Below are positions 1 through 23,143 of a stretch of 32,000 nt of DNA, one piece after another. The position numbers were made by a program, and so were the translations under genes. The stretch is taken from contig OY781970.1 in NCBI GenBank assembly GCA_963677525.1, positions 5,894,802-5,926,801 of the forward strand, given 5' to 3'. The notes beneath the pieces were generated by a model that saw only the letters and a list, made by a program, of their open reading frames with translations, was not told where the DNA came from and ran no database searches. Within the stretch, counting starts at the first letter, position 1. Each line of letters begins with the position of its first letter. The stretch is from an uncultured Draconibacterium sp. GTDB taxonomy: Bacteria > Bacteroidota > Bacteroidia > Bacteroidales > Prolixibacteraceae.

Positions 1-820
1 AAGTTTTGGCGGCGAAATTTTTCTAAGCTCCGAGGTAACACGCTTTGAGGTGGGAGAGAAAAAAATGGATGCCCTGATTGTTAACGGAGAGGAGCGAATT
101 GAAGCCGATCACTTCATCTCCGGAATTCATCCGCAGGCAACGCTTGACCGGGTCGATGAAACTCCATTGCTTCGAAAGGTTTTCAGAACCAGGATCAGGA
201 GCCTGAAAAATACGATCTCGAATTTTACCATCTATCTTAAGTTCAAAAAAGATTGTTTCAGGTATAAAAATTTCAATCTGTATTATTATAGAAACGAGGA
301 TGTTTGGGATGCATTTTCCTATACAGAAGGCGAATGGCCCAAAAGTTTTCTCATGATGAATCAGGCCAGGTCGAAAGATACGTCGGGTTATGCCCACAGC
401 GCCATTGTAATTGCCTACATGAACTTTGAAGATGTGGCCAGGTGGAACGAAACGACTGTGGGAAAACGCGGCCAGGAATATCTCGATTTTAAGAAGGCGA
501 AAGCCGAAAAACTGTTGCAGGAACTGGAGTTGTGTTGCCCGGGAATAAACGATTGTATTGAAACGTATTATACTTCTTCTCCGTTAACTTACCGCGATTA
601 TACAGGAACAACAAACGGATCGATGTATGGCGTAATGCGCGATTGCAGCATGTCGTCGCAGCTGATGGTTACACAAAAAACAAAAATACCGAACCTGTTT
701 TTTACCGGCCAGAATATTAACGCGCACGGAATGCTGGGTGTAGCAGTTGGTTCCATAATTACATGTTCGGAGTTGATAGGGGCTGAAAAGTTGATTGGAC
801 AACTAAAGAGTTACAGCTAA
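1..820 (+). CDS. FAD-dependent oxidoreductase, phytoene-desaturase-like (CrtI/COG1233 type), 5'-truncated by the window edge
   Basis: The frame is open from nt 2 (SFGGEIFLSSEVTRFEV precedes the listed Met at 50) and stops at 818-820. It aligns colinearly by eye with the C-terminal half of the downstream paralogue 945..2462. Matching blocks: ISGIHPQATLD/ISAIHPAITLD, RIRSLKNTISNFTIYLKFKKD/RIKSIKNTTSSFTLFVKFKKD, PLTYRDYTGTTNGSMYG/PLTIRDYTGSKDGTLYG, FTGQNINAHGMLGV/LTGQNLNMHGILGV. Confidence 0.8.
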   Translation, partial: SFGGEIFLSSEVTRFEVGEKKMDALIVNGEERIEADHFISGIHPQATLDRVDETPLLRKVFRTRIRSLKNTISNFTIYLKFKKDCFRYKNFNLYYYRNEDVWDAFSYTEGEWPKSFLMMNQARSKDTSGYAHSAIVIAYMNFEDVARWNETTVGKRGQEYLDFKKAKAEKLLQELELCCPGINDCIETYYTSSPLTYRDYTGTTNGSMYGVMRDCSMSSQLMVTQKTKIPNLFFTGQNINAHGMLGVAVGSIITCSELIGAEKLIGQLKSYS

Positions 821-857
821 CTTTAGCAAATAGTAGCTTTTGAATTGTTTTAAGTAA

Positions 858-865
858 TAGATTTG
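858..865 (+). promoter_or_regulatory. candidate -7 box TAGATTTG (TAnnTTTG) upstream of the oxidoreductase gene
   Basis: Exact TAnnTTTG match 80 nt upstream of ATG 945. A TTTG at 839-842 sits closer than the usual -33 spacing. Confidence 0.3.
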
Positions 866-944
866 TGAATTTGATCATGATTGTTAATACAAAAATGAGA
901 AATTTTGGAGGTGTTAATATTTGTTATATTATTTTAGCTGCTAA

Positions 945-2462
945 ATGAGCTTTAAGTACGATATCTTAATAATAGGTAGCGGTTTGGGCGGCCTTACTTG
1001 CGGCAGTATTTTAAGTAAGGAAGGATATAAAGTTTGTGTACTCGAACAAAACCCTCAAATCGGCGGATGTCTTCAGAATTTCAGGAGAAACGGATATGTT
1101 TTCGATACCGGGATGCATTATGTCGGTGGGTTTGAACAGGGGCAGTCGCTTCAGAAAATATACTCTTATCTTGGTATTTACCACAAACTGAAGTTGCAAC
1201 CTCTGCATTCCGAACATTTCGATTTGATACATATAGGCAGCGATAATGCGAAATATCCACTTGGTTTGGGGTACGAAAGATTCGTTGAAAACCTTTCCAA
1301 AATTTTTCCCGAAGAAAAGGCAAATATCGAAAAGTATGCCGAAGCGGTTCAAACAATTTGTAAAAGTTTTCATTTATATTTTCTCGAATCGGTCTCCGGA
1401 ACAAACCATATGTTGGGTGAATATTCAACGACAAGCGTAGGCGAGTTTATCGATTCTATAACTACCAACGAAAAGTTGCGGATTGCTTTAGCCGGGAATA
1501 ATATGTTGTATGCCGGCGAACGTTACGAAACACCTGTATTTGTGCACGCGCTTATAAGCAATATGTTTATTACCGGTGCCAAATATTTTGTTGATGGTTC
1601 GCAACAACTGGCCAACGAAATGGCAGATTTGATCCGCAGTTCGGGTGGAGAAATAATTACGAAAAGTAAGGTTGTACATATCGAGGCGGCTGATAAAATG
1701 GTTAAATGGGTACAAACCGGTGATGAAAATATTTATGAAGCTGATACCTATATCTCGGCTATTCATCCGGCCATAACACTCGATATGATTGAGGATGACC
1801 AGATTCAAAAATCATACAGGAAACGGATAAAAAGTATTAAAAATACAACCTCGAGTTTCACTCTTTTTGTGAAATTCAAAAAGGATAAATTCAAGTATCT
1901 GAATTATAATTATTACTACGGAATTGATTATAATTCTATGTGGGAGATGGCCAATTATGATTTTGAAAAAGAATGGCCCAAAGGATTTATGATGCTTACT
2001 CCGCCACATTCCGATTCACCCGAATATGCCAAAACTGCAATTGTAAATTGTTTGATGAATTTTGATGAGGTAAAGCAGTGGGAATCGACACAAGTGGGGA
2101 ATCGGGGGGAAGAATACAAACAATTTAAGCAAAATTGTATCGACCGTGTAATACGAAGGATTGACGAGAGTATACCCGGTTTTTCTAATAATGTGGAGAC
2201 TGTTTTTGGAGCCACACCGCTTACTATCCGCGATTATACAGGATCGAAAGACGGAACTTTGTATGGAACCCGAAAAAGTATTAACGAATTAATGATTTCG
2301 CATATCTCACCGCGGACCAAATTGAACAACCTGCTTTTAACAGGGCAGAATCTGAATATGCACGGTATATTGGGCGTTCCGTTAACGGCGGTTCAAACCT
2401 GCGGCGAGTTAATCGGGTTAAATAACCTGATAAATAAAATAAATGAGGGAGCAGAAACATAA
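945..2462 (+). CDS. NAD(P)/FAD-dependent oxidoreductase, phytoene-desaturase-like (CrtI/COG1233 type)
   Basis: 505-aa ORF. It has an N-terminal Rossmann dinucleotide-binding fold (YDILIIGSGLGGLTCGSILSKEGYKVCVLEQ, GxGxxG with an acidic end), followed by GGCLQNFRRNGYVFDTGMHY, typical of amine-oxidase-fold desaturases. It is a tandem paralogue of 1..820. Confidence 0.85.
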   Translation: MSFKYDILIIGSGLGGLTCGSILSKEGYKVCVLEQNPQIGGCLQNFRRNGYVFDTGMHYVGGFEQGQSLQKIYSYLGIYHKLKLQPLHSEHFDLIHIGSDNAKYPLGLGYERFVENLSKIFPEEKANIEKYAEAVQTICKSFHLYFLESVSGTNHMLGEYSTTSVGEFIDSITTNEKLRIALAGNNMLYAGERYETPVFVHALISNMFITGAKYFVDGSQQLANEMADLIRSSGGEIITKSKVVHIEAADKMVKWVQTGDENIYEADTYISAIHPAITLDMIEDDQIQKSYRKRIKSIKNTTSSFTLFVKFKKDKFKYLNYNYYYGIDYNSMWEMANYDFEKEWPKGFMMLTPPHSDSPEYAKTAIVNCLMNFDEVKQWESTQVGNRGEEYKQFKQNCIDRVIRRIDESIPGFSNNVETVFGATPLTIRDYTGSKDGTLYGTRKSINELMISHISPRTKLNNLLLTGQNLNMHGILGVPLTAVQTCGELIGLNNLINKINEGAET

Positions 2463-2624
2463 AGTTGCCCTAATTTTTTTAGTTTTAACCGAACGCTTAA
2501 ATTCGGTGATGAATTTAACTGTTGAAATACTATTAACGAACAAGAAATAACGAATGTTGATCATATGAAACGAGCATGATAAAAATTATCACAAAGAAGG
2601 ATGACTAAAATTATGCGAGTTCCA

Positions 2625-2640: not shown

Positions 2641-2667
2641 CTTAAATCATAAAACAATAATAAAGGG

Positions 2668-3948
2668 ATGAAATTCAAACTTATATATCCAAGGTGGGAA
2701 AAACTGGAAGGGCAGACTACCTTTAACCTGCCTCCACACGGACCGGTGGTTTTTGCTGCCGCATTGCCTGATTATGTTGATGTCTCGTTTACCGACGAAA
2801 ATGTACAAACCATTGATTTCGATGAAGAATGCGATTTTGTTGGCATCTCGATGATGTTAAGCACCCAGGTGAACCGTGGCTGGCAAATTGCCAAAGAATT
2901 CAGAGCAAGAGGGAAAAAGGTGATTTTTGGTGGTATATCTACTATGTTGCATGCCAAAGAAACCATGGAACATGCTGACTCAATATTTCTGGGAGAGGCC
3001 GAAGGATACATGGAACAGGTTTTTAACGATTTCAGAAATAATAATCTGCAGAAGGTGTATAATTTCATGAATAAGTTGCCGGATATTAATCTTGTGGGAA
3101 CAGCACGGAGAGATATTCTCGACCGGACTTTGTACAACCACAAAGGCGTGCAAATGGTTGATTTATATCACGCTTCAAGGGGCTGTCGTTTTTCATGTTA
3201 CCCATGCGCCGTTGCTTATCTCGGTAGCCGGAAATTCAGGCCGCGCCCCATCGATAAGGCTATTGAGGAACTGGAAGCCATCGATAACAACCGCGTTTTT
3301 ATTGTTGATAACTCACTGGCACAAGATACCAAATGGGAAATGGATTTGTTCAGGGAAATGATTCCCCTAAAAAAGAAATTTATTAGTCATACCATTGAGG
3401 ACGATCCGAAAGTGCTTGATCTGGCCGCACAGGCAGGATCGTGGTATGTTTACCAGGCTGTGTTCGATACTTCAGATTACATTAAAAATCGTATAAAACG
3501 ATATCACGATTATGGTATTGGTGTGGAAGGAACTATCCTGCTTGGCCTTGATAACCAGACCGAAGACGACATGAAACGTCTGATTGACTTTTTATTGGAA
3601 ATAGATCTCGATTTGGCGGAATTTACGATTTTGGCTCCTTTTCCGCATACAAAAGCCTACAACGATCTGATGAAAGAAGGCCGTATATTCGATCATAACT
3701 GGGATAATTACAATGCAGGCAGGGTGGTTTATCAACCAAAACATATGAGTCCGGAGCGTTTGCAGGAATTGTATCAGTATGCCTGGGATACCTTTTATAA
3801 AGATGAATCGCAGGAGCAGAAGATGCTGAAATTATTCACTCAGGTTATGATGCGTGAAATGACCGACGGAACTTATCGTCCGCGCGACAGGAAACTGGCA
3901 AACAGAAGCTTCGGAAAAGAAGTGGTAAGAAATATCCAAACTCTTTAA
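2668..3948 (+). CDS. B12-binding domain-containing radical SAM protein
   Basis: 426-aa ORF. An N-terminal cobalamin-binding-like Rossmann segment (DFVGISMMLSTQ...KKVIFGGISTMLH...IFLGEAEG) is followed by the radical SAM cluster motif CRFSCYPC (CX3CX2C). Confidence 0.85.
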   Translation: MKFKLIYPRWEKLEGQTTFNLPPHGPVVFAAALPDYVDVSFTDENVQTIDFDEECDFVGISMMLSTQVNRGWQIAKEFRARGKKVIFGGISTMLHAKETMEHADSIFLGEAEGYMEQVFNDFRNNNLQKVYNFMNKLPDINLVGTARRDILDRTLYNHKGVQMVDLYHASRGCRFSCYPCAVAYLGSRKFRPRPIDKAIEELEAIDNNRVFIVDNSLAQDTKWEMDLFREMIPLKKKFISHTIEDDPKVLDLAAQAGSWYVYQAVFDTSDYIKNRIKRYHDYGIGVEGTILLGLDNQTEDDMKRLIDFLLEIDLDLAEFTILAPFPHTKAYNDLMKEGRIFDHNWDNYNAGRVVYQPKHMSPERLQELYQYAWDTFYKDESQEQKMLKLFTQVMMREMTDGTYRPRDRKLANRSFGKEVVRNIQTL

Positions 3949-3960
3949 GCGAATAGGAAA

Positions 3961-4338
3961 ATGAAGATTTCTTTGGATTATATTGATACAAATTTTGACT
4001 TTGAAGGCGATTGGGGAGTTGAGTCAAGATGTGGATTAAAGATTGTTGAAGGGAAAGAAAAAACCATTGTTATTGCAGCCGAATTGCCCGAAAATCCAGG
4101 TACTCAAATCACATCGGTTAGTGGCGACCTGGCCCGTCAGATTTGTGAGGCGCATAATATTCAGCCTGAAAATCTGTTGTACATAGAACATACTCCGAAT
4201 ATGAATTCGAAACTTTCGTTTTACGGAGAAACATTTTTCAGGGTTGATTTTGAGTTGGCCGACGGAAACTTTTCAACGCCAAAATGGGAAAAATTAACCC
4301 GGCAACAAGTTGACGAATTGATAGATTCAATTAAGTAA
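3961..4338 (+). CDS. hypothetical protein (125 aa), no motif recognised
   Basis: The ORF sits 12 nt after the rSAM stop and 2 nt before the ligase start, on the same strand, with codon usage similar to its neighbours. I recognise no family signature. Confidence 0.55.
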   Translation: MKISLDYIDTNFDFEGDWGVESRCGLKIVEGKEKTIVIAAELPENPGTQITSVSGDLARQICEAHNIQPENLLYIEHTPNMNSKLSFYGETFFRVDFELADGNFSTPKWEKLTRQQVDELIDSIK

Positions 4339-4340: not shown

Positions 4341-5648
4341 ATGGAGAGTTTTATTCCGGAAATAGAGTTGCAGGATCCGAAAACGGTTAAGCGGTTCCAG
4401 GAAGAAAAACTGGCAGAACATCTTCATTACCTGAAATCAGGTTCGAAATTTTATTCTTCGCTGTTCCAAAAGGAACATATCGACATCGATAAAATAAAAT
4501 TACTGGAAGATTTAAAACATATTCCGGTTACTACTAAAAAGGATTTACAGGAGCGAAACAACGACTTTATTTGTGTAGAGGAAGATAAGATTATCGATTT
4601 TATTACCACCTCGGGAACATTAGGCGATCCGGTTACTTTTGCCATGACCGACAAGGATCTCGACCGTTTGGCATACAATGAATTTATATCGTTTGCCTGT
4701 GCGGGAGGACATGCCGGTGAGAAATACCAGTTGATGACCACCATCGACAAACGTTTTATGGCGGGGTTGGCTTATTTCCTGGGAATAAGAAAAATGGGTG
4801 CGGGTATTATCCGTGTTGGCAACGGCATTCCAGAACTGCAGTGGGATACCATCGAACGTATATCGCCCAATGCCATAATTTGTGTTCCTTCGTTTATTTT
4901 GAAGATTATTGATTACGCCGAAAAACACGGCATCGATTATAAAAATTCATCAGTAAAAAAAGCTATTTGTATTGGCGAAAATCTGCGAAACGGCGATTTT
5001 GAGTTAAACATGCTGGGACAACGGATAAAAGCCAGGTGGGATATTGAATTGTATTCTACCTATGCATCAACCGAAATGGCAACTACTTTTACCGAATGCT
5101 GCGCACACCAAGGCGGGCATCATCATCCCGAATTAATTATTACTGAATTGCTGGATGAAGACAATAATCCGGTTGCAGAAGGCGAAGTGGGAGAGTTGGT
5201 TGTAACAACGCTGGGAGTTGAAGGTATGCCGCTACTGCGTTTTAAAACCGGCGATATGTGTCGTTTTTATACCGGGCCTTGTTCGTGTGGCAGAACCACG
5301 GCACGCATCAGCCCGATAATCGGGAGGAAAAATCAGATGATAAAATATAAAGGTACAACCCTTTATCCTCCAATGATTTTTGATGTATTGAATAACCTCG
5401 AGGAGGTGGAAAATTACATTGTTGAGGTGGGAACCAACGATTACGGCACCGACAATATTCTGGTTGCCGTTGGATGCACAACACCTTGCGAAGATTTTGA
5501 AAAACAAATAAAAGATAACTTCAGGGCGAAATTGAGGGTGGCACCTGAAATACGTTTTATGGAAATTGATGAAATAGCCAAAAAACATTTTCCAAATGGT
5601 AACAGAAAGCCACTTAACTTTATTGATAAGCGAAAAACCAAAATATGA
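4341..5648 (+). CDS. adenylate-forming ligase, phenylacetate-CoA ligase / coenzyme F390 synthetase-like (PaaK, COG1541 type)
   Basis: 435-aa ORF. ANL-superfamily motifs occur in order: TTSGTLGDP, YASTEMA, FKTGDMC, KYKGTTLYP. The short length and motif spacing fit the PaaK/F390-synthetase family rather than long 4CL/FadD enzymes. Confidence 0.8.
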   Translation: MESFIPEIELQDPKTVKRFQEEKLAEHLHYLKSGSKFYSSLFQKEHIDIDKIKLLEDLKHIPVTTKKDLQERNNDFICVEEDKIIDFITTSGTLGDPVTFAMTDKDLDRLAYNEFISFACAGGHAGEKYQLMTTIDKRFMAGLAYFLGIRKMGAGIIRVGNGIPELQWDTIERISPNAIICVPSFILKIIDYAEKHGIDYKNSSVKKAICIGENLRNGDFELNMLGQRIKARWDIELYSTYASTEMATTFTECCAHQGGHHHPELIITELLDEDNNPVAEGEVGELVVTTLGVEGMPLLRFKTGDMCRFYTGPCSCGRTTARISPIIGRKNQMIKYKGTTLYPPMIFDVLNNLEEVENYIVEVGTNDYGTDNILVAVGCTTPCEDFEKQIKDNFRAKLRVAPEIRFMEIDEIAKKHFPNGNRKPLNFIDKRKTKI

Positions 5649-6781
5649 ACACAACACGATTTGAAGATATTCGGCCCTATTACGATCATGAGGTAAATGA
5701 AGCGATGCAGCGAATTGCCGAGAATCCATTGGTGGACACGGTTCGGCAAAAGATGTTTCCTCAGATCCCTCTTGATATTTTGAAAGATAAGATCAGGAGT
5801 ACGGAAACCACATATCAATTTCAGACCACGTTTATGTACATGGCCATGAATGCGATTCTGGAAGGGACTACTAAAGGATGCGGTACGTCCGGTTTTGGTC
5901 GGATTTTGCCGGAAGGTTCGTATATTTTCTTGGCTAATCACCGCGACATTATTCTCGATTCAGGGATACTTCAGGTGAAATTGCACGAACATGGTTTCGA
6001 AAGTTCAGAAATGTCGTTTGGAAGCAACCTGATGATGAACGAGTTTGTGGTTGATATCGGCAAATCGAATAAAATGTATAAAACCATCAGGGCTAGCAAT
6101 AGAAAAGAATTGATTGAAAACTCGAAGCACCTGTCGGATTACCTGCGATATACTATTACCGAAAAACACAGTTCCACCTGGATTGCCCATCGTAACGGGC
6201 GTACCAAAGACGGCAACGACCGCACTGAACCCGGTTTGCTCAGAATGTTATCAATGACGGGTGTAAAAGATTTTGTGCCCAACATGTTCGAATTAAATAT
6301 CACTCCCATAAGTGTTTCATATGAATACGAACCATGCGCTGCTGAAAAGATCCGTGAGATTTACCTGTCGTCGAAAGGGCCTTATGTGAAGGAACCCGGT
6401 GAAGACCTGAGAAGTATTATCAGTGGCGTTCAGGGATACAAAGGAGGAATGCATTTAGCAATAGGTCATCCGGTTTCTAAAGAGATGCTGGAAGAAGCCG
6501 ATTCATATGTTAAAAGTGAAAAATATATTCAGCTTGCCGCATTAATCGATCAGGAAATTTTCCGGAATTACAAGCTGTGGAAAACCAACTACATGGCTTA
6601 TGATATGTTGAAAAAGGATGGAGAATATTCGGATAAATACAGCAAGGAAGATCTGGAACAGTTTACCGATTATATGAAAAAGACCACTGATAAAGTGGTG
6701 GAAGGACCGAGGGATGAGATAGAAACTTTATTCCTTAAACTTTATGCCAATCCGGTTATCAATAAAAAAAGCGTGGAATAA
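5645..6781 (+). CDS. acyltransferase, PlsC/LPLAT-like (1-acyl-sn-glycerol-3-phosphate acyltransferase family) with a C-terminal extension
   Basis: 378-aa ORF. ATG 5645 overlaps the ligase stop (ATGA). The LANHRDIILDSG block resembles the NH..D catalytic box of PF01553 acyltransferases, and a later WIAHRNGRTKDG block resembles the EGTR-type box. The assignment is motif-level only. Confidence 0.65.
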   Translation: MNTTRFEDIRPYYDHEVNEAMQRIAENPLVDTVRQKMFPQIPLDILKDKIRSTETTYQFQTTFMYMAMNAILEGTTKGCGTSGFGRILPEGSYIFLANHRDIILDSGILQVKLHEHGFESSEMSFGSNLMMNEFVVDIGKSNKMYKTIRASNRKELIENSKHLSDYLRYTITEKHSSTWIAHRNGRTKDGNDRTEPGLLRMLSMTGVKDFVPNMFELNITPISVSYEYEPCAAEKIREIYLSSKGPYVKEPGEDLRSIISGVQGYKGGMHLAIGHPVSKEMLEEADSYVKSEKYIQLAALIDQEIFRNYKLWKTNYMAYDMLKKDGEYSDKYSKEDLEQFTDYMKKTTDKVVEGPRDEIETLFLKLYANPVINKKSVE

Positions 6782-9275: not shown

Positions 9276-9289
9276 TCACCGGTATAAAC

Positions 9290-12333: not shown

Positions 12334-12337
12334 GCAA

Positions 12338-13539: not shown

Positions 13540-13797
13540 TTATTTTGTCTTGTTTTCAGAGATATAAGTTGCCATGGAGTTGATCGACTTGAATATCTCG
13601 CGTCCTTTGTTCGGATCGTCGATTTTAATTCCGTAGTTTTTCTCCATCAACACAATTAATTCCAGCGCATCAATCGAGTCTAAACCCAAACCGTCGCCAA
13701 AAAGCGGTAGTTCGTTGTCGATTTCTTCCGGAGTCATTCCTTCCAGGTTTAATATCTCAATAATCTCTTCTTTTAATTTGAAAATTAATTTTTCCAC
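13540..13797 (-). CDS. acyl carrier protein
   Basis: 85-aa acidic protein with the phosphopantetheine attachment motif GLDSIDALELI (DSxD/helix II). It lies 2 nt upstream of the KS. Confidence 0.9.
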   Translation of the reverse strand: MEKLIFKLKEEIIEILNLEGMTPEEIDNELPLFGDGLGLDSIDALELIVLMEKNYGIKIDDPNKGREIFKSINSMATYISENKTK

Positions 13798-15580: not shown

Positions 15581-16012
15581 TTATTCAATGATTTTCCATT
15601 TCTTTTTCCACTCGATAAAAAATTCCGGTGAGTTCCAAACCAGCTGGTATTTTTTATCTAAAAAAACCTGAACACTGTCGGCTGTCAATACCACGGAATT
15701 ATCTTTTTTATTTCTGATTTCGTATTTGTATTGAATTTTGGCAGCTTCTGAGTTGACAAAAGTGGTTTTTATAATGGCCGAATCGCCATAAACCAGCGGC
15801 TTTTTAAAATCCATATTCATCTGGGTGAGTGGTACAAAATACCCTTCGGTAAGGGTGTCGAGGTAGCCCAGCTTGTATTCTTTCCCGAAAGCCTCGCGTC
15901 CGTCTTCGAGGTATTTTACGTAGCTGCCATGCCATAAAATCCCCATGGAATCTACCTCGCTAAATCGAACTTCAATTTCTTTGGTGGCTGATAATTCTAT
16001 CTTTTTTGTCAT
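15581..16012 (-). CDS. acyl-CoA/acyl-ACP thioesterase, 4HBT (YbgC-like) hotdog fold
   Basis: 143-aa ORF. The N-terminal block EVRFSEVDSMGILWHGSYVKYLEDGREAF matches the 4-hydroxybenzoyl-CoA thioesterase family pattern (Asp followed by V.H..Y..Y.E.AR-like). Confidence 0.75.
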   Translation of the reverse strand: MTKKIELSATKEIEVRFSEVDSMGILWHGSYVKYLEDGREAFGKEYKLGYLDTLTEGYFVPLTQMNMDFKKPLVYGDSAIIKTTFVNSEAAKIQYKYEIRNKKDNSVVLTADSVQVFLDKKYQLVWNSPEFFIEWKKKWKIIE

Positions 16013-16027: not shown

Positions 16028-16450
16028 CTAAACCAGCGATATTTTCATTTCGCACTCCGCAATTACCTTTCCGTTGCAAACCGATTTTGCATTCACCAAA
16101 GTAATATTAAAGTACTCGTTCATTACTTCAATTTTTGTTTCAATTTCGTCTCCCAACTCCGGGAAGAAATGAATATTAAGATTTTTTATTGCACCAATAA
16201 AACCCAGCCGAACCTCCTGGTTGTTCAAAAATTTATTGATGTAACCCATTCGCGCGGCACAGGTTTGTGCAAAATTTTCGATAATGCCGGCCTCGTAAAA
16301 TTTACCATTCTCAAAAAAGATATTATCCTCACGAACCGTAAATTTTGTGGCCGTAATTATTTTGTCGAACGATGTGAGTTTATCAATCATCAACATGGGC
16401 TGACGTTGGGGAATCAGTTCGAGTATGTCAATTTCTTCCAGATTCTTCAT
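16028..16450 (-). CDS. hotdog-fold FabZ-like (3-hydroxyacyl-ACP dehydratase-like) protein, non-canonical active site
   Basis: 140-aa ORF. ILELIPQRQPMLMIDKL aligns with FabZ ILELLPHRFPFLLVDRV, and IIENFAQT aligns with ILEAMAQA (Glu kept). The FabZ FFQGHFP block reads FFENGKF here. Confidence 0.7.
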   Translation of the reverse strand: MKNLEEIDILELIPQRQPMLMIDKLTSFDKIITATKFTVREDNIFFENGKFYEAGIIENFAQTCAARMGYINKFLNNQEVRLGFIGAIKNLNIHFFPELGDEIETKIEVMNEYFNITLVNAKSVCNGKVIAECEMKISLV

Positions 16451-16453: not shown

Positions 16454-17818
16454 CTAATATCTTAAGTATTCCCAAAGTGGGCCCCTTCGTTTGCGCGCTC
16501 TTAATACGTCGTAAAAATCGCTTTTTTCATCTCCCGGGAAGATCCATTTTTTTCCTGTTGCCAGTCCCATTTCCTTCACATTTTCCAGGTCAACCTCGTC
16601 GGAAATGTAATACACCGGCTTTAATAATTTATCGTCCGGTTTAATTTTTCCTTCGCTCAAAGCTACATTATACAATTCAGTTCCCGGGTAAATCCGCATC
16701 CCGATATAAGGGAAAAATACCGAATGTTCAATTTGTTTGCTGTTTTCGAACGTTTCCTGAAGTGTTTCGTTTGTTTCGCCGTAACCGCCTAAAATAAGGA
16801 AATGCGAAAAGAAAATGCAAAGATCGTTGCAGATTTCCGACTTTTCGAGCACATCCTTAAAACGGAACGATTTTTTATAGCTTTTTAAGGTGGTATCGCA
16901 AAACGCATCGGTACCAAATTCGATGTGTGTGAGACCTGCTTTTCTATACAACTCCAGATCTTCGTATTTTAACGAGGCATCGGGTGCAAAATAAGCGCCC
17001 CAGTTTATTTTTATTCCGCTGTCGATAATTTCCTGGCAAAGCTCACGGTTGTATTTTTTATTGATATTAAAAATTGAATCGGTAAAAAACACGTAGTTTA
17101 TTTTTTGCTCGGTGCTCAGTTTTTTCAGCGTTTTTATAATGGTGTCGATGTCGAGAGTCCGAACTTCTTTTCCTTCAATAACCGGGTAGCTGCAGTAGAT
17201 ACAACTTTTGGGGCAACCCCGTTTTGTCTGGATGTTCAGCATTCCGCTTTTGTTCCAGTAGAAATCAATGTTTTCGAGGTTGAAATCGAGATCCAGGTTT
17301 TGAAGATATTCCGTTCTGGAATTTTGTTGAATGGAACTATTCGATTTAAAAACCAGTCCCTGGACAGTGCTGATATCACCTCCTGTATCAAGCAGGTTGA
17401 TTAATTCAACCAGGCTGTTTTCTCCTTCGCCTTTTACGCCGTAATTGGCTCCCAGAAAATCGAGCAGAAATTCGGGGAAAATGGAAAATCCTGCCCCGCC
17501 AACAATTACCGGGGCACTGGAAACTGCTTTCGCTTTATCAACAATTTGTTTGTACCAGTCGATAAAACTCCCCTTTTCGTAAATGTTGTTGTCGTCGATG
17601 TTGCGCAGCGAAACGCCAATATAACGAATGTCGTTGCCGGCAACAAGAGCGTCTATTTCGTCCAGTTCTTTCAGGTTTAAATCCAGCTCAAGCAAATTAT
17701 ATTCCGGCAGGTGTTTCTTCATGTAGGTGGAAAGATACGATAACCCAATTGGGTAAACCGGGTACGGATCGCAATACCTGTTGGCCGAAATAAGTAATAT
17801 TGACTTGTTTTTGCTCAT
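16454..17818 (-). CDS. B12-binding domain-containing radical SAM protein (lipid-biosynthesis-associated type)
   Basis: 454-aa ORF. An N-terminal cobalamin-binding-like region (ILLISANRYCDPYPVYPIGLSYL...IRYIGVSLRNID...VIVGGAGFS...GVKGEGE) is followed by the radical SAM motif CPKSCIYC (CX3CX2C). It has a 4-nt overlap with the upstream acyltransferase and a 3-nt gap to the downstream hotdog gene. Confidence 0.85.
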   Translation of the reverse strand: MSKNKSILLISANRYCDPYPVYPIGLSYLSTYMKKHLPEYNLLELDLNLKELDEIDALVAGNDIRYIGVSLRNIDDNNIYEKGSFIDWYKQIVDKAKAVSSAPVIVGGAGFSIFPEFLLDFLGANYGVKGEGENSLVELINLLDTGGDISTVQGLVFKSNSSIQQNSRTEYLQNLDLDFNLENIDFYWNKSGMLNIQTKRGCPKSCIYCSYPVIEGKEVRTLDIDTIIKTLKKLSTEQKINYVFFTDSIFNINKKYNRELCQEIIDSGIKINWGAYFAPDASLKYEDLELYRKAGLTHIEFGTDAFCDTTLKSYKKSFRFKDVLEKSEICNDLCIFFSHFLILGGYGETNETLQETFENSKQIEHSVFFPYIGMRIYPGTELYNVALSEGKIKPDDKLLKPVYYISDEVDLENVKEMGLATGKKWIFPGDEKSDFYDVLRARKRRGPLWEYLRY

Positions 17819-18699
17819 GCGGTTTTTTTGTTCATATCGTTCCAGAAATCGTAGAAATTAAACCACTGTTCCGGGTAGATTTTAAGTTGATTTTCTATTT
17901 CTGACACAAAGTTTTCCACCTTTTGCGGAATAGAATCGGCTTCTATTTTTTTAATATAAATGTTGTATGAAAATTTCCCGCTTTTCATTACAAAAAAGGA
18001 AAGTACCGGAACATTTAATTTTTCAGCCATGGTAAACGCTCCTGTTGGGAAATTTGCATCCTTTCCAAGGAAATTGCAAGTGTGAACGCGCGTTTCATGA
18101 AAACTCCTATCGCCCGGCATGCCTACAAATTCTCCTTTTTTTATCACATTCATAATGGTAAACAGGTGCGACAAATCGTGCGATACAGGAATGAGCGAGA
18201 TATTATTGCGGCTTAATATTTCGTCGCGATATTTTAACCAGTTTTTGCTTTCTTCACCAAAAACCAAACCGTGCATTTTCGCTTCTCCCATGCTAAAAAG
18301 ATAGCCCGCAATCTCGAAATTACCGATGTGAGAACTTAAAATGATAGCACCTTTTTTCTCTGCGATTAATTCGGTCAGAATCTCATTCCCCTCAACTGTA
18401 ACCTGAAATACATTTTTTTTACCGGCAAACAATGCTATCCGGTCTAACATAATCTGACCAAAAAGGTAATGGTTGCGAAAGGTCTTAAAAAATGCTTTAA
18501 GAGGAGGCAGATTTAATTTTTGTCGAAAGTAAAAATAAATGGAATTGTAGCCCTTACGGGCAAACAGCAAGTAGAAAGGTATAACAAACCAAAGAATAAA
18601 ATAACCTACTGATAGCGGAAATATTTTGAAAAACCAAAGCAGCAGTTTTATTCCAAAATTTCCTTGTGTTTTCCCTTGCCAATCTCGCGTGTAATTCAC
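17815..18699 (-). CDS. lysophospholipid acyltransferase family protein (LpxL/HtrB lauroyl-acyltransferase-like)
   Basis: 294-aa ORF. It has an N-terminal TM segment (IKLLLWFFKIFPLSVGYFILWFVIPFYLLF) and an SSHIGNFEIAG box (the H-x-G-N-x-E form of the HX4D/E acyltransferase motif typical of the LpxL family). The apparent GTG start at 18699 shares 1 nt with the ACP stop. Confidence 0.75.
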   Translation of the reverse strand: MNYTRDWQGKTQGNFGIKLLLWFFKIFPLSVGYFILWFVIPFYLLFARKGYNSIYFYFRQKLNLPPLKAFFKTFRNHYLFGQIMLDRIALFAGKKNVFQVTVEGNEILTELIAEKKGAIILSSHIGNFEIAGYLFSMGEAKMHGLVFGEESKNWLKYRDEILSRNNISLIPVSHDLSHLFTIMNVIKKGEFVGMPGDRSFHETRVHTCNFLGKDANFPTGAFTMAEKLNVPVLSFFVMKSGKFSYNIYIKKIEADSIPQKVENFVSEIENQLKIYPEQWFNFYDFWNDMNKKTA

Positions 18700-18947
18700 T
18701 ATTTATCTTTTACCTTGCTATAAATATAGTCGTAGAAATCGTTGAGAACTACCACGTTGGTCATTTCTTCTTGTTTTATTTTAAAACCAAAGGCTTTTTC
18801 AACAATTACAACTATATCAACAAAATCGAGGCTGTCGATTTCCAGGTCGTCTTTAATGCGCGCATCCGGTGAAATTACATCCTCGTCAACTTCAATTTCC
18901 TCAACGAGGAACTCATTCATGATTTTTATTACCTCTTCTCTTTCCAT
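18699..18947 (-). CDS. acyl carrier protein
   Basis: 82-aa acidic protein with the attachment motif LEIDSLDFVDIVV. Confidence 0.85.
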   Translation of the reverse strand: MEREEVIKIMNEFLVEEIEVDEDVISPDARIKDDLEIDSLDFVDIVVIVEKAFGFKIKQEEMTNVVVLNDFYDYIYSKVKDK

Positions 18948-19049: not shown

Positions 19050-19601
19050 CTAAAATAAGAAACTTACTCCAAAACTGAGTATACTTACATTATAACTTGT
19101 TTCTGCATACACGGCCAGGCCGTCTGAAAACTGGTAGCGGCATCCTGCAAATATGTCGTGTACAAATTGATTTGGTTCTTCATATTTATAGTAAGCTTCA
19201 TCCTCATAATTACCATTATAATTGTTACCAACAAGGGCATAACCTGCAAGAACTCCGGCGTAAACATCGAAATACCTGAAAAAATCGTTGTGGTTCATTG
19301 CATAAAAATCGAAGTGGTAGGCGCCACGTCCTGCTACTATCCAATAGTTGTGCTTGTTGTCGTAATTCGTGGTATGTTTAAAGGCGCCAAATCCTCCAAC
19401 GCTAATATAACCGATTCCGAGTTTTTCGAAAGGAAGGGTTTCATAAGAGAAGTTAATTGATGGTATTCCGCTTCCACAATACATTAATCCATCAATTCCT
19501 AAACCTAAGTTTACAGCCTGGTCGCCGGTTTCAATTGCCTGCGCCTGCGAAGTTCCATAAGCTATTAGGCTTACAAATAAAATCAATACTAATTTTTTCA
19601 T
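19050..19601 (-). CDS. small outer-membrane beta-barrel-like protein (hypothetical)
   Basis: 183-aa ORF. It has a signal peptide (MKKLVLILFVSLIAYGTSQAQA), a Gly/Tyr/Phe-rich alternating sequence, and a C-terminus SILSFGVSFLF ending in Phe, as in many beta-barrel OMPs. The size fits an 8-10-stranded barrel. Confidence 0.6.
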   Translation of the reverse strand: MKKLVLILFVSLIAYGTSQAQAIETGDQAVNLGLGIDGLMYCGSGIPSINFSYETLPFEKLGIGYISVGGFGAFKHTTNYDNKHNYWIVAGRGAYHFDFYAMNHNDFFRYFDVYAGVLAGYALVGNNYNGNYEDEAYYKYEEPNQFVHDIFAGCRYQFSDGLAVYAETSYNVSILSFGVSFLF

Positions 19602-19624
19602 TTTAAATTAATTTTTGGGTTAAA

Positions 19625-20842
19625 CTAAATTTTTTTAATAATTAAAGCTGAGTTGGTTCCACCAAAACCGAAGGAGTTTGAAAGATAAGTGTCTATCTTT
19701 TGTTCTTTGGTTTTGGCAATAATATTTAGTTTTGAAGAGTGTTCGTCGCCTTCTTCGAAGTTGAGATTAGGTGCAATAAAATTGTTTTGCATCATCAGGG
19801 TTGAATATACAATTTCACTGGCTCCTGCCATCCAGCACTCGTGGCCGGTCATTCCTTTTGTTGAACTTACCGGTGTTTTTACATCTCCAAAAAGTTCATT
19901 GATGGCTTGTGCTTCGTACATATCTCCAAGCGGAGTGGATGTAGCGTGTGCATTAATATAATCGATGTCGGAAGTTTTCATGTTGGCATCTTTTAGTGCC
20001 ATCGACATGGCCCGGAATGACCCCTGGTTGCTGGGTTGCGAAATGTGCCCTCCGTTCGACGAAAAACCATATCCGACAACCTCTGCAAGAATTGGCGCTC
20101 CACGTTTTACTGCATGTTCGTATTCTTCCAAAATAACTGTGGCAGCTCCACCGCTTGGTACCAGTCCATCGCGGTTTTTATCGAATGGGCGCGAAGCTTT
20201 TGTGGGATCATTTACATTCACAGAGAAAGCTCCAAGCGAATCGAAACTTCCCATCGAATAAAAATTGGTTTCCTGAGCTCCTCCGCAAACAATAACATTT
20301 TGCAAGCCATTTTTTATAAAAAAGTAACCCAGACCGATGGAGTGAGAACCACTGGCACAGGCTGCGCTGATGGTCATGTTGATGCCCCGTAATTTAAAGA
20401 TTACCGAAAGATTCATGGTCACCGTCGAGTTCATGGATTGAAAAATAGCTCCTGAGCCCAGCAGCCCGGTATCGCGTTTTTCCATGATGGTATTATTGGC
20501 TTCGATAACTGCTTTTGCCGAGCTGTCGTTACCAAATAGGATGCCCACCTCGTTTTTTTCGAGGAAATCCATGTCTATTTTGGCATTGTCTAATGCTTCT
20601 GCCGTTGAAACATAGGCGTATTCTGCTTCTTCGGCTAAGCCAACACGCATCCTTCTGTCGAGTTTGCCTTTCAGTTTTGGCCGTTCTACCAATCCGGTTA
20701 AAGGAGAACGGTAGCCTATTTCTTTGCGTATTTCTTCTATTCCTATGCCTGAAGTTCCTTTAAATAAAGATTCCTTTACTTCTTCAATGTTTTTCCCAAT
20801 GCAGGCATATGCGCCCATTCCTGTTATTACAACTCTTTTCAT
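19625..20842 (-). CDS. beta-ketoacyl-ACP synthase (KAS I/II-like)
   Basis: 405-aa ORF with a complete triad: MTISAACASGSHSIG (Cys), INAHATSTPLGD (His), MTGHECWMAGA (His). C-terminal NSFGFGGTNS. Confidence 0.9.
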   Translation of the reverse strand: MKRVVITGMGAYACIGKNIEEVKESLFKGTSGIGIEEIRKEIGYRSPLTGLVERPKLKGKLDRRMRVGLAEEAEYAYVSTAEALDNAKIDMDFLEKNEVGILFGNDSSAKAVIEANNTIMEKRDTGLLGSGAIFQSMNSTVTMNLSVIFKLRGINMTISAACASGSHSIGLGYFFIKNGLQNVIVCGGAQETNFYSMGSFDSLGAFSVNVNDPTKASRPFDKNRDGLVPSGGAATVILEEYEHAVKRGAPILAEVVGYGFSSNGGHISQPSNQGSFRAMSMALKDANMKTSDIDYINAHATSTPLGDMYEAQAINELFGDVKTPVSSTKGMTGHECWMAGASEIVYSTLMMQNNFIAPNLNFEEGDEHSSKLNIIAKTKEQKIDTYLSNSFGFGGTNSALIIKKI

Positions 20843-20851
20843 AAATTCCTG

Positions 20852-21580
20852 TTAAGTATGTAATCCTCCGTTTATTGATATGGTTTGACCGGTAATATAC
20901 GAAGCTTTTTTTGATGCTAAAAAAGCAACCACGTTGGCTACCTCTTCAGCTTTTCCAAAACGGTTCATCGGGATAAGCGATTTCAGGGATTTTTCATCCA
21001 GATCTTTGGTCATGTCGGTATGGATGAAACCAGGTGCTACCGCATTAACGGTTACGTTTCTTTTTCCTACCTCCTGGGCCAAAGCTTTGGTTGCACCTAT
21101 TACACCGGCTTTTGCTGCCGAATAATTGGCTTGCCCGGGCAGGCCTTTAATACCCGATAACGAAACTACATTTACAATTCTTCCATACCGATTGGTAAGC
21201 ATGTCTTTAATCAGCCGGCGCGTTACATAAAAAAAGCCGCCAAGACTTATGTCGAGCACGCTGTCCCAGTCTTCATTTGTCATCCACATCAAAAGATTGT
21301 CTTTCCTGATACCGGCGTTGTTTACCAATACTTCTATAACCGAATCGCTGTTTTGCTCCATCCAGGCCATCAGTACATCATCTACCTGCTGGTAGTTTGA
21401 AACATCAAATTTTAACAGCTCGGCTTTTCCTCCTTTTTCTTCAATCAACGATTTTGTTGTGTTGGCAGCTTCGTCGTTCGATGTATAATTAATTAAAACC
21501 GGGTAGCCCATTTCTGCGAGTTGTAAACAAATCTCCCGCCCAATTCCACGTGAACCTCCGGTTACCAGTGCATATTTCAT
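20852..21580 (-). CDS. fabG: 3-oxoacyl-ACP reductase (SDR family, FabG-like)
   Basis: 242-aa ORF with the classical SDR motifs TGGSRGIGREI (TGxxxGxG), NNAG and YSAAKAG (YxxxK). Confidence 0.9.
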   Translation of the reverse strand: MKYALVTGGSRGIGREICLQLAEMGYPVLINYTSNDEAANTTKSLIEEKGGKAELLKFDVSNYQQVDDVLMAWMEQNSDSVIEVLVNNAGIRKDNLLMWMTNEDWDSVLDISLGGFFYVTRRLIKDMLTNRYGRIVNVVSLSGIKGLPGQANYSAAKAGVIGATKALAQEVGKRNVTVNAVAPGFIHTDMTKDLDEKSLKSLIPMNRFGKAEEVANVVAFLASKKASYITGQTISINGGLHT

Positions 21581-21622
21581 AGTTTGTTTGTCTTCAGTTT
21601 TGTAAATGAACGATTTTGAATG

Positions 21623-23143
21623 CTAAATCTCAATTATATTGTTCATTAAGTAATTTTTTACAGTTGCAAGTTCTTTATATTTTGTTGAATCTTCAACAAA
21701 AACAGGGAATACTTCCCTAATTTGTTCATAAATATTACGTGTAAAAGGAGCCATCAAATCCTGACATTTTGCGTAATCAATAGCCTGAAGCAGTGTCATA
21801 AACTGAACAGCCAGCACCTGGTAACTATTATCAATTACTTTTCTGGCGATAAGCGCCGAGTTGGTTCCCATACTTACAATATCCTGGTTGTCGTTGTTGT
21901 TGGTAATACTATGCACATAGTTCGGGAACGAATAAGTCTGGTTTTCAGCGGTTGTTGATGTTGCTGTAAATTGTACACCCTGCATTCCAAGATTAAGCCC
22001 AAGTGTGCCCAGGTTTACAAATGCCGGGAATTTTTCGTTCAATTTCGGGTTCAGCAGAAAATTCAGGTGGCGTTCTTCCAGCATCGACAAGCGGGTGATG
22101 GCAATTTTTAGTTTGTCCATTTCCAGCGAAACATAATCGCCATGGAAGTTCCCTCCGTGGTAAACATTCTGGTTTTTGTAATCGATTATCGGGTTGTCGT
22201 TCACCGAATTGGCTTCGCTTATAATAATGTCTTCTACGCTGTTGATGGTGTCGTAAATCGGTCCCAGAATTTGCGGAACACAACGCAGTGAATAAAATTC
22301 CTGCACCTTCCCGTTAATTACTTTTTCTTTCACATCGCGGTAAAGGTATTTATTCCTGTCTTTAATCATTTTACTACCTGAAAGAAGTTCGCGCATTTTT
22401 GAGGCCACATAATTTTGTCCTTGATGTAGTTTTACTGCATTCAGTACTTCGGCAAAACTATCGTCGTACGAACCAACAATTTCATTTAATATGGTAGATG
22501 AAATCAGCGACCAGTTGAACAGGTTTTTCGCTTTGATCAGGTTTATTGCCCCGATTCCGGTCATTACCGATGTGCCGTTAATCAGCGAAAGACCTTCGCG
22601 CAAATAAATTTTTATGGGTTCCAGGTTGTGAAGTTTCATCACTTCGGCAGTTGGTCTGATTTCACCTTTGTAAAATACTTCACCTTCTCCAATTAATGAT
22701 AGAGCAAGGTGAGAAAGCTGCACCAGGTCACCACTTGCGCCTACTCCGCCGTGTTCGTACAACACCGGACAAATATCAAAATTTATAAAATCCTGAAGTA
22801 ATTTGGGTACCGACGGATGAATGCCCGAGTAGCCTCGTTTAATATTTTGTAACCGGCAGATCATTGCAGCTTTTATGTCGTTGGTAGAAATTGGATTTCC
22901 GCTACCGGCTGAATGACTCCGGATAAGGTTGTATTGCAGTGCTTTATGGTCTTCGTCGTTAATTTTATATTGAGCCATTGGCCCAAAACCGGTGTTAATT
23001 CCGTAAATAACTTTATTTTTTGCAAAATCGGTCAGAAAATTGTAGGATGCTTCCACCCTGGCTAATTCATCTTCTGAGATAGTAACTTCTTTGCCATTGA
23101 ATATGACATCGTGAAAATAATCAAGTTTGATTGTTAAGGTCAT
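21623..23143 (-). CDS. aromatic amino acid ammonia-lyase (MIO enzyme), probably tyrosine ammonia-lyase of the flexirubin FlxA/FjTAL type
   Basis: 506-aa ORF. It has the MIO-forming Ala-Ser-Gly triad in GGVGASGDLVQLSH, plus YGINTGFGPMA, NLIRSHSAGSG and NDNPII blocks. It is the first gene of the polyketide-like operon and no hut genes are nearby. From memory, its length and many blocks resemble the Flavobacterium johnsoniae TAL. Confidence 0.8.
   Translation of the reverse strand: MTLTIKLDYFHDVIFNGKEVTISEDELARVEASYNFLTDFAKNKVIYGINTGFGPMAQYKINDEDHKALQYNLIRSHSAGSGNPISTNDIKAAMICRLQNIKRGYSGIHPSVPKLLQDFINFDICPVLYEHGGVGASGDLVQLSHLALSLIGEGEVFYKGEIRPTAEVMKLHNLEPIKIYLREGLSLINGTSVMTGIGAINLIKAKNLFNWSLISSTILNEIVGSYDDSFAEVLNAVKLHQGQNYVASKMRELLSGSKMIKDRNKYLYRDVKEKVINGKVQEFYSLRCVPQILGPIYDTINSVEDIIISEANSVNDNPIIDYKNQNVYHGGNFHGDYVSLEMDKLKIAITRLSMLEERHLNFLLNPKLNEKFPAFVNLGTLGLNLGMQGVQFTATSTTAENQTYSFPNYVHSITNNNDNQDIVSMGTNSALIARKVIDNSYQVLAVQFMTLLQAIDYAKCQDLMAPFTRNIYEQIREVFPVFVEDSTKYKELATVKNYLMNNIIEI

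Follow-up and report, generated by a model that had tools for sequence, protein, structure and literature searches.

A Flexirubin-Family Gene Cluster with Two B12-Binding Radical-SAM Genes in Draconibacterium and Other Bacteroidia

Described Gene Clusters and the Draconibacterium Locus

Clusters of the flexirubin and aryl-polyene types are among the commonest biosynthetic gene clusters of bacteria, and flexirubin-like aryl-polyene clusters have already been flagged by genome mining in gut Bacteroides, for example Bacteroides xylanisolvens. We analyze here one such locus of about 23 kb, which occupies positions 1-23143 of a 32,000-nt stretch of DNA from an uncultured Draconibacterium sp. (the window, to which all coordinates refer), in comparison with described systems. 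In Chitinophaga pinensis, the genes flxA-flxO encode in succession a tyrosine ammonia-lyase (TAL), a short-chain dehydrogenase/reductase (SDR), a ketosynthase (KS), an acyl carrier protein (ACP), an LpxL-type acyltransferase, a dehydratase, a hypothetical protein, a thioesterase, a KS (then a methyltransferase and a halogenase), a condensing-enzyme-like protein, an ACP, a KS, and a KS-like protein (Schoner et al. 2014, PMC3992019), with FlxL annotated as "condensing enzyme" in the cluster table (Table S4, PMC3992019). Also listed for the flexirubin clusters of C. pinensis and Flavobacterium johnsoniae are FlxV, a CrtI-like "retinol reductase," small barrel proteins of the outer membrane, and FlxE of LpxL type (PMC3992019). 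In vitro, C. pinensis FlxY is the 4-coumarate-CoA ligase (4CL) of the flexirubin pathway, unrelated to the plant-type 4CLs, and FlxW has been proposed as the enzyme that joins the polyene to resorcinol (PMC3992019).

The ape clusters of Escherichia coli CFT073 and Xenorhabdus doucetiae yield a membrane-anchored aryl-polyene glycerolipid (APEL), the proteobacterial aryl polyenes ending on a GalNAc-phosphate-glycerol lipid. Their chains start from 4-hydroxybenzoate-type units, not from coumarate derived from TAL and 4CL. A more distant point of reference is the anammox Cluster I (KustE3603-3608), with related clusters in Desulfotalea, Geobacter, and Pelobacter (Rattray 2009; Dietl 2023; Granatino 2026). 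Rattray et al. (2009) found genes for radical S-adenosylmethionine (radical-SAM) and phytoene-dehydrogenase-like enzymes in clusters of the type II fatty acid synthesis kind in Kuenenia, Desulfotalea, Geobacter, and Pelobacter, the synteny between Kuenenia and Desulfotalea adding a phenylacetyl-CoA-ligase-like enzyme, a glycosyltransferase, and a membrane protein. The gene set of anammox Cluster I has been described as unique to ladderane producers, and its role in ladderane synthesis has never been demonstrated.

The locus under study belongs to a widespread variant of the flexirubin-like cluster in anaerobic-type Bacteroidia, including contigs from the human gut, of which two cobalamin radical-SAM genes are fixed members: rSAM1 (16454..17818, minus strand, 454 aa) and rSAM2 (2668..3948, plus strand, 426 aa). 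The carriers comprise complete genomes (such as Tenuifilaceae bacterium CYCD; AP027304.1 and CAXXXS010000001.1 are accessions of complete carriers) as well as human-gut taxa. The flexirubin-like kind of cluster and the curated model TIGR04072, to which rSAM1 belongs, were known before; what is new is that rSAM2 replaces FlxW and that a TIGR04072 protein is a fixed member of the cluster.

All 28 sizeable open reading frames (ORFs) of the window were scanned against Pfam and NCBIfam profiles. Three proteins exceed the NCBIfam equivalog cut-offs for flexirubin biosynthesis: FlxA, a TAL of 506 aa (21623..23143, minus strand; NF053541 FlxA_rubin_TAL, 816 bits vs. a cut-off of 700; Pfam Lyase_aromatic, 3.5e-158), whose MIO motif ASG corresponds to residues 136-138; FlxB, an SDR ketoreductase (KR) of 242 aa (20852..21580, minus strand; FlxB_rubin_SDR, 418 bits vs. 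340); and FlxY, a 4-coumarate-CoA ligase of 435 aa (4341..5648, plus strand; NF053551 FlxY_rubin, 727.5 bits vs. 520). The minus-strand array matches the flxA-flxO order of C. pinensis gene for gene, the plus-strand arm matches the flxV...flxY end, and a type II set of KS, KS-like, ACP, KR, and dehydratase (DH) genes follows the flxA-flxO order with no enoyl reductase found by the family scans among the window ORFs. Reading of the motifs gave three KSs with Cys and both His intact and two KS-like partners lacking the active Cys. Among the ape-type core enzymes (Grammbitter et al.), KS, ACP, a chain-length-factor (CLF)-like protein, an ApeP-like DH, and KR lie inside the window, while an ApeI-like DH and MMPL are seen only in the upstream DNA of relatives. 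Because the strongest family matches reach E-values of 1e-246 and the gene order of the window is repeated in dozens of independent contigs, the cluster signal is not a product of chance. By family membership and gene order, we assign the locus to the flexirubin family of aryl-polyene clusters, predicted to be tyrosine-primed and built on KS, CLF, KR, and DH without an enoyl reductase.

This assignment agrees with the flexirubin/aryl-polyene logic that an earlier reading of the same DNA, made from the sequence only, had proposed, and to which the three equivalogs and the flxA-flxO gene order now give substance. The ORF map reproduces exactly the layout given in that sequence-only reading: a minus-strand array of 16 ORFs running from 23143 to 9290, with gaps of 42, 9, 23, and 102 nt, then overlaps or 2-15 nt and finally 105 nt, which converges across a 14-nt gap (9276-9289) with a plus-strand arm of 7 ORFs, the outermost one (1..820) beginning beyond the window edge. 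Its inventory of an ammonia-lyase, three KSs, two KS-like proteins, two ACPs, one KR, one hotdog protein, one 4HBT thioesterase and one LpxL-type acyltransferase agrees with the Pfam and NCBIfam scans, which also bear out the lack of an enoyl reductase. The accessory set that it considered unusual fared differently. Since the gene order of the window matches the published flx order of C. pinensis, FlxY, FlxV, and FlxE are canonical members: the PaaK/F390-like ligase that seemed odd in a locus thought to lack a classical 4-coumarate-CoA ligase is FlxY itself, one of the two CrtI-like flavoenzymes is the standard FlxV, and the LpxL-type acyltransferase is FlxE, standard in the C. pinensis cluster. 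Candidates for the three proteins of outer-membrane beta-barrel type do exist (504, 843, and 183 aa), but small barrels are standard in such clusters and the Omp85-like one probably lies outside the core set. Most of what had seemed odd is therefore due to the window edge and to the unrecognized FlxY, FlxV, and FlxE, leaving as true peculiarities the two B12/radical-SAM genes, one of them in the place of FlxW, the second tandem copy of the CrtI-like gene, the ArnE/F-like membrane protein, the GPAT/PlsC-fold acyltransferase, and the fact that DarA/DarB were not seen in the locus.

Compared with C. pinensis (Cpin_1853-1877), the locus has the same FlxA, FlxB, and FlxY equivalogs and the same order from TAL to KS-like gene, and the distal block of that cluster (LolA, hypothetical protein, dehydratase, family 2 glycosyltransferase [GT2], MMPL/acyltransferase, FlxV...FlxY) is present in two relatives, the Bacteroidales metagenome-assembled genome L003 and the JGI metagenome contig L090. 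It differs in that rSAM1 is inserted behind the LpxL-type acyltransferase gene, rSAM2 and a gene for a 125-aa protein replace FlxW (C45) and FlxX (a phosphopantetheinyl transferase), there are two CrtI-like genes, the FlxP deacetylase gives way to an ArnE/F-like gene, and the distal block is inverted; moreover, a GPAT/PlsC-fold acyltransferase and a DUF5686 protein are added, whereas the FlxJ methyltransferase and FlxK halogenase are missing. With F. johnsoniae (Fjoh_1075-1110) the locus shares the core enzymes, the FlxY-type ligase, the FlxV-type flavoenzyme, and small outer-membrane barrel genes, and that organism also has LolA, GT2, and MMPL/acyltransferase genes. In contrast to the window, however, F. 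johnsoniae possesses an ABC transporter and FlxW, and its DarA/DarB genes fill the slot between LpxL-type acyltransferase and dehydratase that rSAM1 occupies here. The ape clusters are similar in having a type II KS/CLF pair, two ACPs, an ApeP-like dehydratase, KR, thioesterase, and lipid acyltransferases, together with an ApeI-like dehydratase and LolA-like, MMPL, and GT2 proteins, which on the side of the present variant are encoded in the upstream DNA of relatives, but they have neither radical-SAM nor CrtI-like genes.

The likeness to anammox Cluster I is of a different kind. All its gene types, namely ACP, FabZ-like dehydratase, KS, inactive KS partner, phytoene-dehydrogenase-like enzyme, and B12 radical-SAM enzyme, are found in the window, rSAM1 belongs to the NCBIfam family that takes its name from the anammox radical-SAM enzyme, and the Desulfotalea cluster also has adjacent phytoene-dehydrogenase-like genes (DP2405/DP2406). 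The combination of accessory genes is one that Rattray et al. (2009) had already noted. Yet the window cluster is tyrosine-primed and resides in Bacteroidota. To our knowledge, no ladderanes are known from this phylum. Among solved chains, the 399-aa KS of the window (KS399) and its dehydratase have no better matches than ordinary FabF and FabZ; because they are no closer to the solved anammox proteins than to FabF/FabZ, and the locus is TAL-primed, we rejected its membership in this ladderane-candidate cluster.

The Radical-SAM Genes and the Positions They Occupy

Along residues 7-452, rSAM1 scores 408.6 bits against TIGR04072 (rSAM_ladder_B12; cut-off 360), a model named by NCBI "lipid biosynthesis B12-binding/radical SAM protein," and it combines this nearly end-to-end match with the Pfam B12-binding and Radical_SAM domains and an intact CxxxCxxC motif (C202/206/209), as expected of a family member. 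Its gene overlaps that of the LpxL-type acyltransferase by 4 nt. We recruited 80 metagenome loci with an rSAM1 profile and counted neighbors among those with enough flank: the immediate upstream neighbor is an LpxL-type acyltransferase in 58 of 64, the downstream neighbor a dehydratase in 57 of 69, and 26 of 35 include a TAL gene. Several of these loci derive from human-gut metagenomes. The protein is thus a fixed member of this cluster variant. A natural fusion of 758 aa (P0112), joining an LpxL-type acyltransferase domain to a B12/radical-SAM protein, suggests together with the 4-nt gene overlap in the window that the acyltransferase and rSAM1 act together.

What kind of reaction would rSAM1 catalyze? 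Its nearest characterized relatives are the B12 methylases BzaD, TsrM, and PhpK, whose models give 119-169 bits, far under their cut-offs, and the best solved relative is TsrM, the match extending through the B12 domain only. The slot behind the LpxL-type acyltransferase varies by lineage: it is occupied by rSAM1, by a PF00891-type methyltransferase, by DarA/DarB as in F. johnsoniae, or it is skipped, with the dehydratase following directly. The methyltransferase is found there in five loci of two lineages, L086 and L087 on one side and the Draconibacterium loci L004, L007, and L010 on the other, the latter three genes being 46-48% identical to that of L086. Since a conventional methyltransferase holds the slot of rSAM1 elsewhere, this substitution points to methylation, and our best guess from the sequences is that both radical-SAM proteins may be cobalamin-dependent C-methyltransferases, or related tailoring enzymes, working on carrier-bound intermediates.

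A group of 8 of the 80 metagenome relatives of rSAM1 lies outside any flx context (L103, L106, L115, L117, L132, L165, and two shorter loci). These orphan paralogues are mostly of 451 aa and about 46-54% identical, and have genes for Fic, Band 7, NadA, GNAT, and metallophosphoesterase proteins as neighbors, a calcineurin-like phosphoesterase adjoining in L117 and L132, the two loci looked at in detail; because the neighbor genes are unrelated, we dropped the group as a clue to function.

For rSAM2, Pfam gives Radical_SAM at 31.1 bits (cut-off 29.5) and B12-binding at 29.7 bits, below the cut-off of 32.1, and the CxxxCxxC motif is intact (C173/177/180). The claim that the window encodes two B12-binding radical-SAM enzymes, which the characterized clusters lack, hence stands, both having the motif. 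Directly behind rSAM2 follows the gene for the 125-aa protein (3961..4338, plus strand), always paired with it and recognized by conserved position only: it has no family match even at E=1, and single-sequence AlphaFold2 gave no usable fold (pLDDT 43). Counterparts of this small protein follow rSAM2 in L002, L003, L084, and L086-L090. In the window, L002, L003, and L086-L089, this pair is flanked by FlxV and FlxY; the contig L090 stops short of FlxY, and L084 has the pair at another place.

The place between FlxV and FlxY is the one in which flexirubin clusters have FlxW, a protein resembling C45 peptidases and acyl-CoA:6-aminopenicillanic acid (6-APA) acyltransferase. By tblastn, FlxW counterparts are found in this position in 71 loci and rSAM2 with its 125-aa partner in 9, and the two never co-occur; FlxW was confirmed as PF03417 (C45) in L013 and L045, whereas no PF03417 match was obtained among the window ORFs and no FlxW in any rSAM2-type locus. 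In this variant, therefore, rSAM2 and the 125-aa gene replace the C45 acyltransferase FlxW. The substituting enzyme has also an uncommon degree of conservation: it is at least 78% identical among the 120 homologues listed, each representing a 90%-identity cluster (Bacteroidales, Lentimicrobiaceae, Paludibacteraceae), and 81% identical in the Tenuifilaceae genome (L002), while its neighbors diverge more, FlxV to about 40% and FlxA to 57-60% identity. In evolutionary terms, this looks like either unusually strong constraint or recent spread.

Our literature searches turned up no paper that connects radical-SAM enzymes with flexirubin or aryl-polyene biosynthesis, or that mentions TIGR04072, and a 2026 review cites only ladderanes and jawsamycin as ketoacyl lipids believed to undergo modification by enzymes of this kind. 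The variant thus offers a concrete and testable case of radical-SAM/cobalamin chemistry on a polyketide-type lipid, and supplies an accessible relative of the anammox radical-SAM enzyme, which has remained unexpressed.

Extent of the Cluster, Predicted Product, and Rival Explanations

Methyltransferase, glycosyltransferase, LolA, MMPL, and ABC (ATP-binding cassette) families gave no match above noise among the 28 window ORFs, so the absences listed in the sequence-only reading are true for the window itself. For the cluster as a whole, relatives indicate otherwise. The contig L090 is colinear with the window and shares 88% DNA identity with its positions 1-2570 and 2668-4311; nt 1 of the window aligns to nt 7436 of L090, and the preceding 7.4 kb encode LolA, a 190-aa protein, an ApeI-like dehydratase, GT2, a 1265-aa MMPL/acyltransferase, and then the first half of the CrtI-like gene. 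In L003 (74-82% DNA identity), the same LolA/GT2/MMPL block lies upstream, and its 1262-aa MMPL/acyltransferase protein has also a C-terminal methyltransferase domain. The block, corresponding to FlxQ, FlxT, and FlxU, is not in the window but directly upstream of the equivalent position in both relatives. Judging from them, the cluster almost certainly extends to the left past nt 1, the predicted export, glycosyl-transfer, and methyl-transfer genes lying just outside. The sequence-only reading had conceded that the locus would be a standard one if DarA/DarB, 4CL, and LolA/MMPL genes lay immediately upstream in full synteny with characterized clusters; in L090 and L003 half of this is true, the LolA/MMPL genes being present and DarA/DarB not found there.

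The genes from TAL to KS-like, EamA-like, LolA, hypothetical protein, ApeI-like dehydratase, GT2, and MMPL/acyltransferase form a colinear cluster in L083, L085, L094, L101, and many metagenome loci, while the two-arm layout is common to the window, L001, and L003. Since the cluster is colinear in these other Bacteroidales contigs, the two-arm layout represents an inversion of its distal half. In L085, the TAL gene (6010-6318) is a 102-aa fragment abutting a type I restriction-modification system, with the cluster otherwise intact and colinear; it was probably disrupted by an insertion.

Which lipid would carry the polyene? The protein of 378 aa encoded at 5645..6781 (plus strand) has no Pfam match, including PF01553, and sequence and profile searches against the PDB gave only noise. 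Its AlphaFold2 model (pLDDT 90.5, pTM 0.88) has the GPAT/PlsC (LPLAT) fold, with Foldseek matches to human GPAT1 at 1.5e-8 and to PlsC and squash GPAT at 4e-5 (probability 1.0), and an invariant block N98-H99-R100-D101...D105 supplies the catalytic His...Asp arrangement, with HX5D spacing compared with the classical HX4D; some homologues are named "acyltransferase" or match PF01553. We take it from this model to be an additional acyltransferase of GPAT/PlsC fold, in keeping with the second acyltransferase that had been suggested from the sequence. It was ruled out as the replacement of FlxW, with which it co-occurs in 27 loci. As for the dialkylresorcinol genes, the claim that the window has no DarA/DarB is borne out, the DarB model (NF053539) reaching at most 20 bits against a cut-off of 550; an ACP_syn_III-type DarB gene was found in none of the Pfam-annotated relatives (L001, L002, and L083-L090), and neither DarA nor DarB within about 10 kb in them. 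Because FlxW is missing, DarA/DarB are not seen in the locus and APEL offers a precedent, a glycerolipid-type anchor is favored over a dialkylresorcinol ester, so that our guess for the final product is an aryl-polyene glycerolipid-type conjugate. A non-dialkylresorcinol anchor and radical/cobalamin tailoring, in line with the earlier suggestion of a different lipid anchor and/or radical chemistry, are plausible but unproven.

The family membership of the enzymes shows the first steps of the pathway. FlxA deaminates tyrosine to 4-coumarate, which FlxY converts to 4-coumaroyl-CoA; this starter is extended iteratively by a type II system of three KSs, two catalytically dead partners, two ACPs, FlxB, and the ApeP-like dehydratase, and without an enoyl reductase the chain stays a conjugated aryl polyene. 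The 4HBT thioesterase may then release or edit the polyene, which the LpxL-type and GPAT/PlsC-fold acyltransferases, with the GT2 and MMPL/acyltransferase (FlxU) proteins encoded outside the window, could attach to the lipid anchor. The ArnE/F-like protein may flip the resulting polyene lipid, and LolA, the MMPL domain, and DUF5686 or small-barrel proteins might deliver it to the outer membrane.

Taken together, we consider it probable that the locus is a truncated and distally inverted cluster for a flexirubin-family aryl-polyene lipid, of the variant in which two radical-SAM genes are present and FlxW is replaced, the tailoring and glycerolipid guesses included. Several points weigh against this explanation. 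The left-edge cut is deduced from relatives and not from the source genome's own flank; the clusters of radical-SAM type are known from their genes alone, so that the product chemistry is predicted; the case for a methyltransferase role is weak, leaning on positional substitution and on a distant family resemblance that for TsrM concerns the B12 domain only; and the conservation of rSAM2, about 80% against 40-60% for its neighbors, is unusual for a tailoring enzyme and not accounted for by that role. Furthermore, the genome might carry DarA/DarB at another site, like that of C. pinensis, where they lie about 5 Mb from flxA-flxY (PMC3992019), and the product would then still be a true flexirubin. 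The last point leads to the alternative that the locus makes a textbook dialkylresorcinol ester with DarA/DarB at a second site, the radical-SAM genes adding only minor decoration. The FlxA, FlxB, and FlxY equivalogs and the LolA, GT2, and MMPL genes upstream in relatives would fit this well, as would the accessory genes of Dar clusters found in some loci of radical-SAM type (BtrH-like genes and an ABC transporter, in L084 and L088); we regard it nonetheless as rather unlikely, given that neither the window nor any rSAM2-type locus has FlxW, which 71 other loci possess, and that no ACP_syn_III-type DarB is seen in the window or in the annotated relatives.

A cluster truly devoid of LolA/MMPL export, glycosyltransferase, and methyltransferase genes, with an alternative accessory set in their stead as the sequence-only reading had it, agrees with the zero matches to these families among the 28 ORFs, but is hardly credible at all once it is considered that the window opens inside a gene, that the 88%-identical L090 has LolA, ApeI-like dehydratase, GT2, and MMPL/acyltransferase genes within 7.4 kb upstream, that L003 has the block too, with a methyltransferase domain in addition, and that colinear relatives carry LolA/GT2/MMPL genes behind the KS-like gene. 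Very improbable, too, is a radically remodeled polyene lipid, in which rSAM1 and the CrtI-like pair would cyclize, cross-link, or desaturate the carrier-bound chain into something other than a simple linear aryl polyene. The TIGR04072 equivalog match of rSAM1, the presence in the window of all six gene types of anammox Cluster I, and the gene associations reported by Rattray et al. (2009) speak for it; conversely, the anammox gene set has never been shown to act in ladderane synthesis, solved anammox proteins are no better matches for KS399 and the dehydratase than ordinary FabF/FabZ enzymes are, and a conventional methyltransferase takes the slot of rSAM1 in other lineages. The more general proposition that the radical chemistry of rSAM1 on carrier-bound conjugated polyenes goes further than simple methylation (cyclization, cross-linking, desaturation) is itself quite doubtful. 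If it were true, the pigment-lipid would be structurally new, and the carrier Bacteroidia could constitute a culturable and possibly genetically tractable system for the enzyme family that blocks progress on ladderane biosynthesis.

Remaining Genes of the Two Arms and the Flanks

In the minus-strand arm, FlxB is followed by an FabB/FabF-like KS of 405 aa in the flxC position (19625..20842; Pfam ketoacyl-synt N and C domains, Cys-His-His intact). Next comes a 183-aa protein (19050..19601) without family match in the Pfam and NCBIfam scans, which from its signal peptide and C-terminal Phe is probably a small outer-membrane barrel, and which has a counterpart of 53% identity in L001. The genes for an ACP of FlxD type (18699..18947, 82 aa; Pfam PP-binding, DSLD serine motif) and the FlxE-type LpxL-family acyltransferase (17815..18699, 294 aa; Pfam Lip_A_acyltrans, 4e-15, in the flxE position) precede rSAM1. 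Beyond it lie the FlxF/ApeP-like hotdog dehydratase (16028..16450, 140 aa), which matches NCBIfam FabZ models with E down to 1e-11, under their cut-offs, and has orthologues in relatives that match PF22817 (ApeP-like), and the FlxH-type thioesterase (15581..16012, 143 aa; Pfam 4HBT_2 and 4HBT).

The second half of the arm begins with the FlxI-type KS (14424..15578, 384 aa; Pfam, Cys-His-His intact), followed by a truncated KS-like partner of 220 aa (13801..14463), which has no Pfam match and is identified as FlxL-type from its conserved position, its counterparts being 38-83% identical. The second ACP, of FlxM type (13540..13797, 85 aa), matches Pfam PP-binding and NCBIfam PRK09184 (79.5 bits vs. 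a cut-off of 70), the DSL/DSI serine motifs being kept in both window ACPs. KS399 is the FlxN-type KS (12338..13537; Pfam, Cys-His-His intact), with ordinary FabF enzymes as its closest solved relatives, and its neighbor is the FlxO-type CLF-like partner (11263..12384, 373 aa; Pfam Ketoacyl-synt_2), which has STHNT at the Cys site. A small membrane protein of 119 aa (10910..11269) belongs to Pfam EamA (33.7 bits vs. a cut-off of 28.2) and finds its best named relatives in ArnF (4e-13) and ArnE (1e-12), models under whose cut-offs it remains; its gene follows the KS-like one also in L001, L003, L083, L085, and several loci from metagenomes. Together with the GT2 of the cluster and the deacetylase of other lineages, this ArnE/F-like protein is reminiscent of the Arn lipid-linked sugar pathway.

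The last minus-strand gene encodes an Omp85-like protein of 504 aa (9290..10804), with weak POTRA and BamA matches; none of the loci retrieved has a counterpart. When the window is aligned with L001 and L003, the match stops at 9265 and starts again at 10910, so that 9266-10909 is missing from both. Not being conserved beside the cluster, this gene was ruled out as a member, and from these alignments it is probably a lineage-specific insertion into the convergence point of the two arms. Scanning for promoters and terminators around that point gave counts near the shuffled expectation.

On the plus strand, the convergence point is reached by the gene of a probable outer-membrane component of 843 aa with DUF5686 (Pfam, 1e-51) and CarboxypepD_reg domains (6744..9275). 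In L001 and L003 (75%) this gene likewise adjoins the cluster, and in L083 it precedes the TAL gene. At the other end of the arm, the fragment 1..820 encodes the C-terminal 272 aa of a CrtI-like flavoenzyme that matches CrtD and carotenoid-isomerase models and is 90% identical to the product of a 499-aa gene of L090; in tandem with it lies the FlxV-type CrtI/CrtD-like flavoenzyme (945..2462, 505 aa; Pfam Amino_oxidase and NAD_binding_8), which is 39-43% identical to the FlxV-position protein of Chitinophaga and 37-40% to that of Flavobacterium. Tandem pairs of this kind are common in loci of Marinilabiliales type; none was seen in Chitinophaga or Flavobacterium. The FlxV-type gene and rSAM2 stand 205 nt apart in the window (2463-2667) and 103 nt apart in the 88%-identical L090. 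No cobalamin riboswitch was found ahead of rSAM2, the Rfam search at gathering thresholds being empty across the whole window.

On the right flank, the end of the window (29487-31881) contains a 318-aa protein without family match, an AraC-family regulator (30520-31380, minus strand), and an ORF of 120 aa, for which no link with the cluster was seen, except for one tblastn match of the 318-aa protein in L104. Between them and flxA lie the genes for a TamL-like Omp85 protein (23590-25416) and TamB (25238-29269), which diverge from flxA over an AT-rich gap (GC content 0.30 at 23001-24000). Not being conserved beside the cluster in relatives, this pair was ruled out as part of it. The two ORFs overlap by 179 nt, so that the true start of TamB is probably later.

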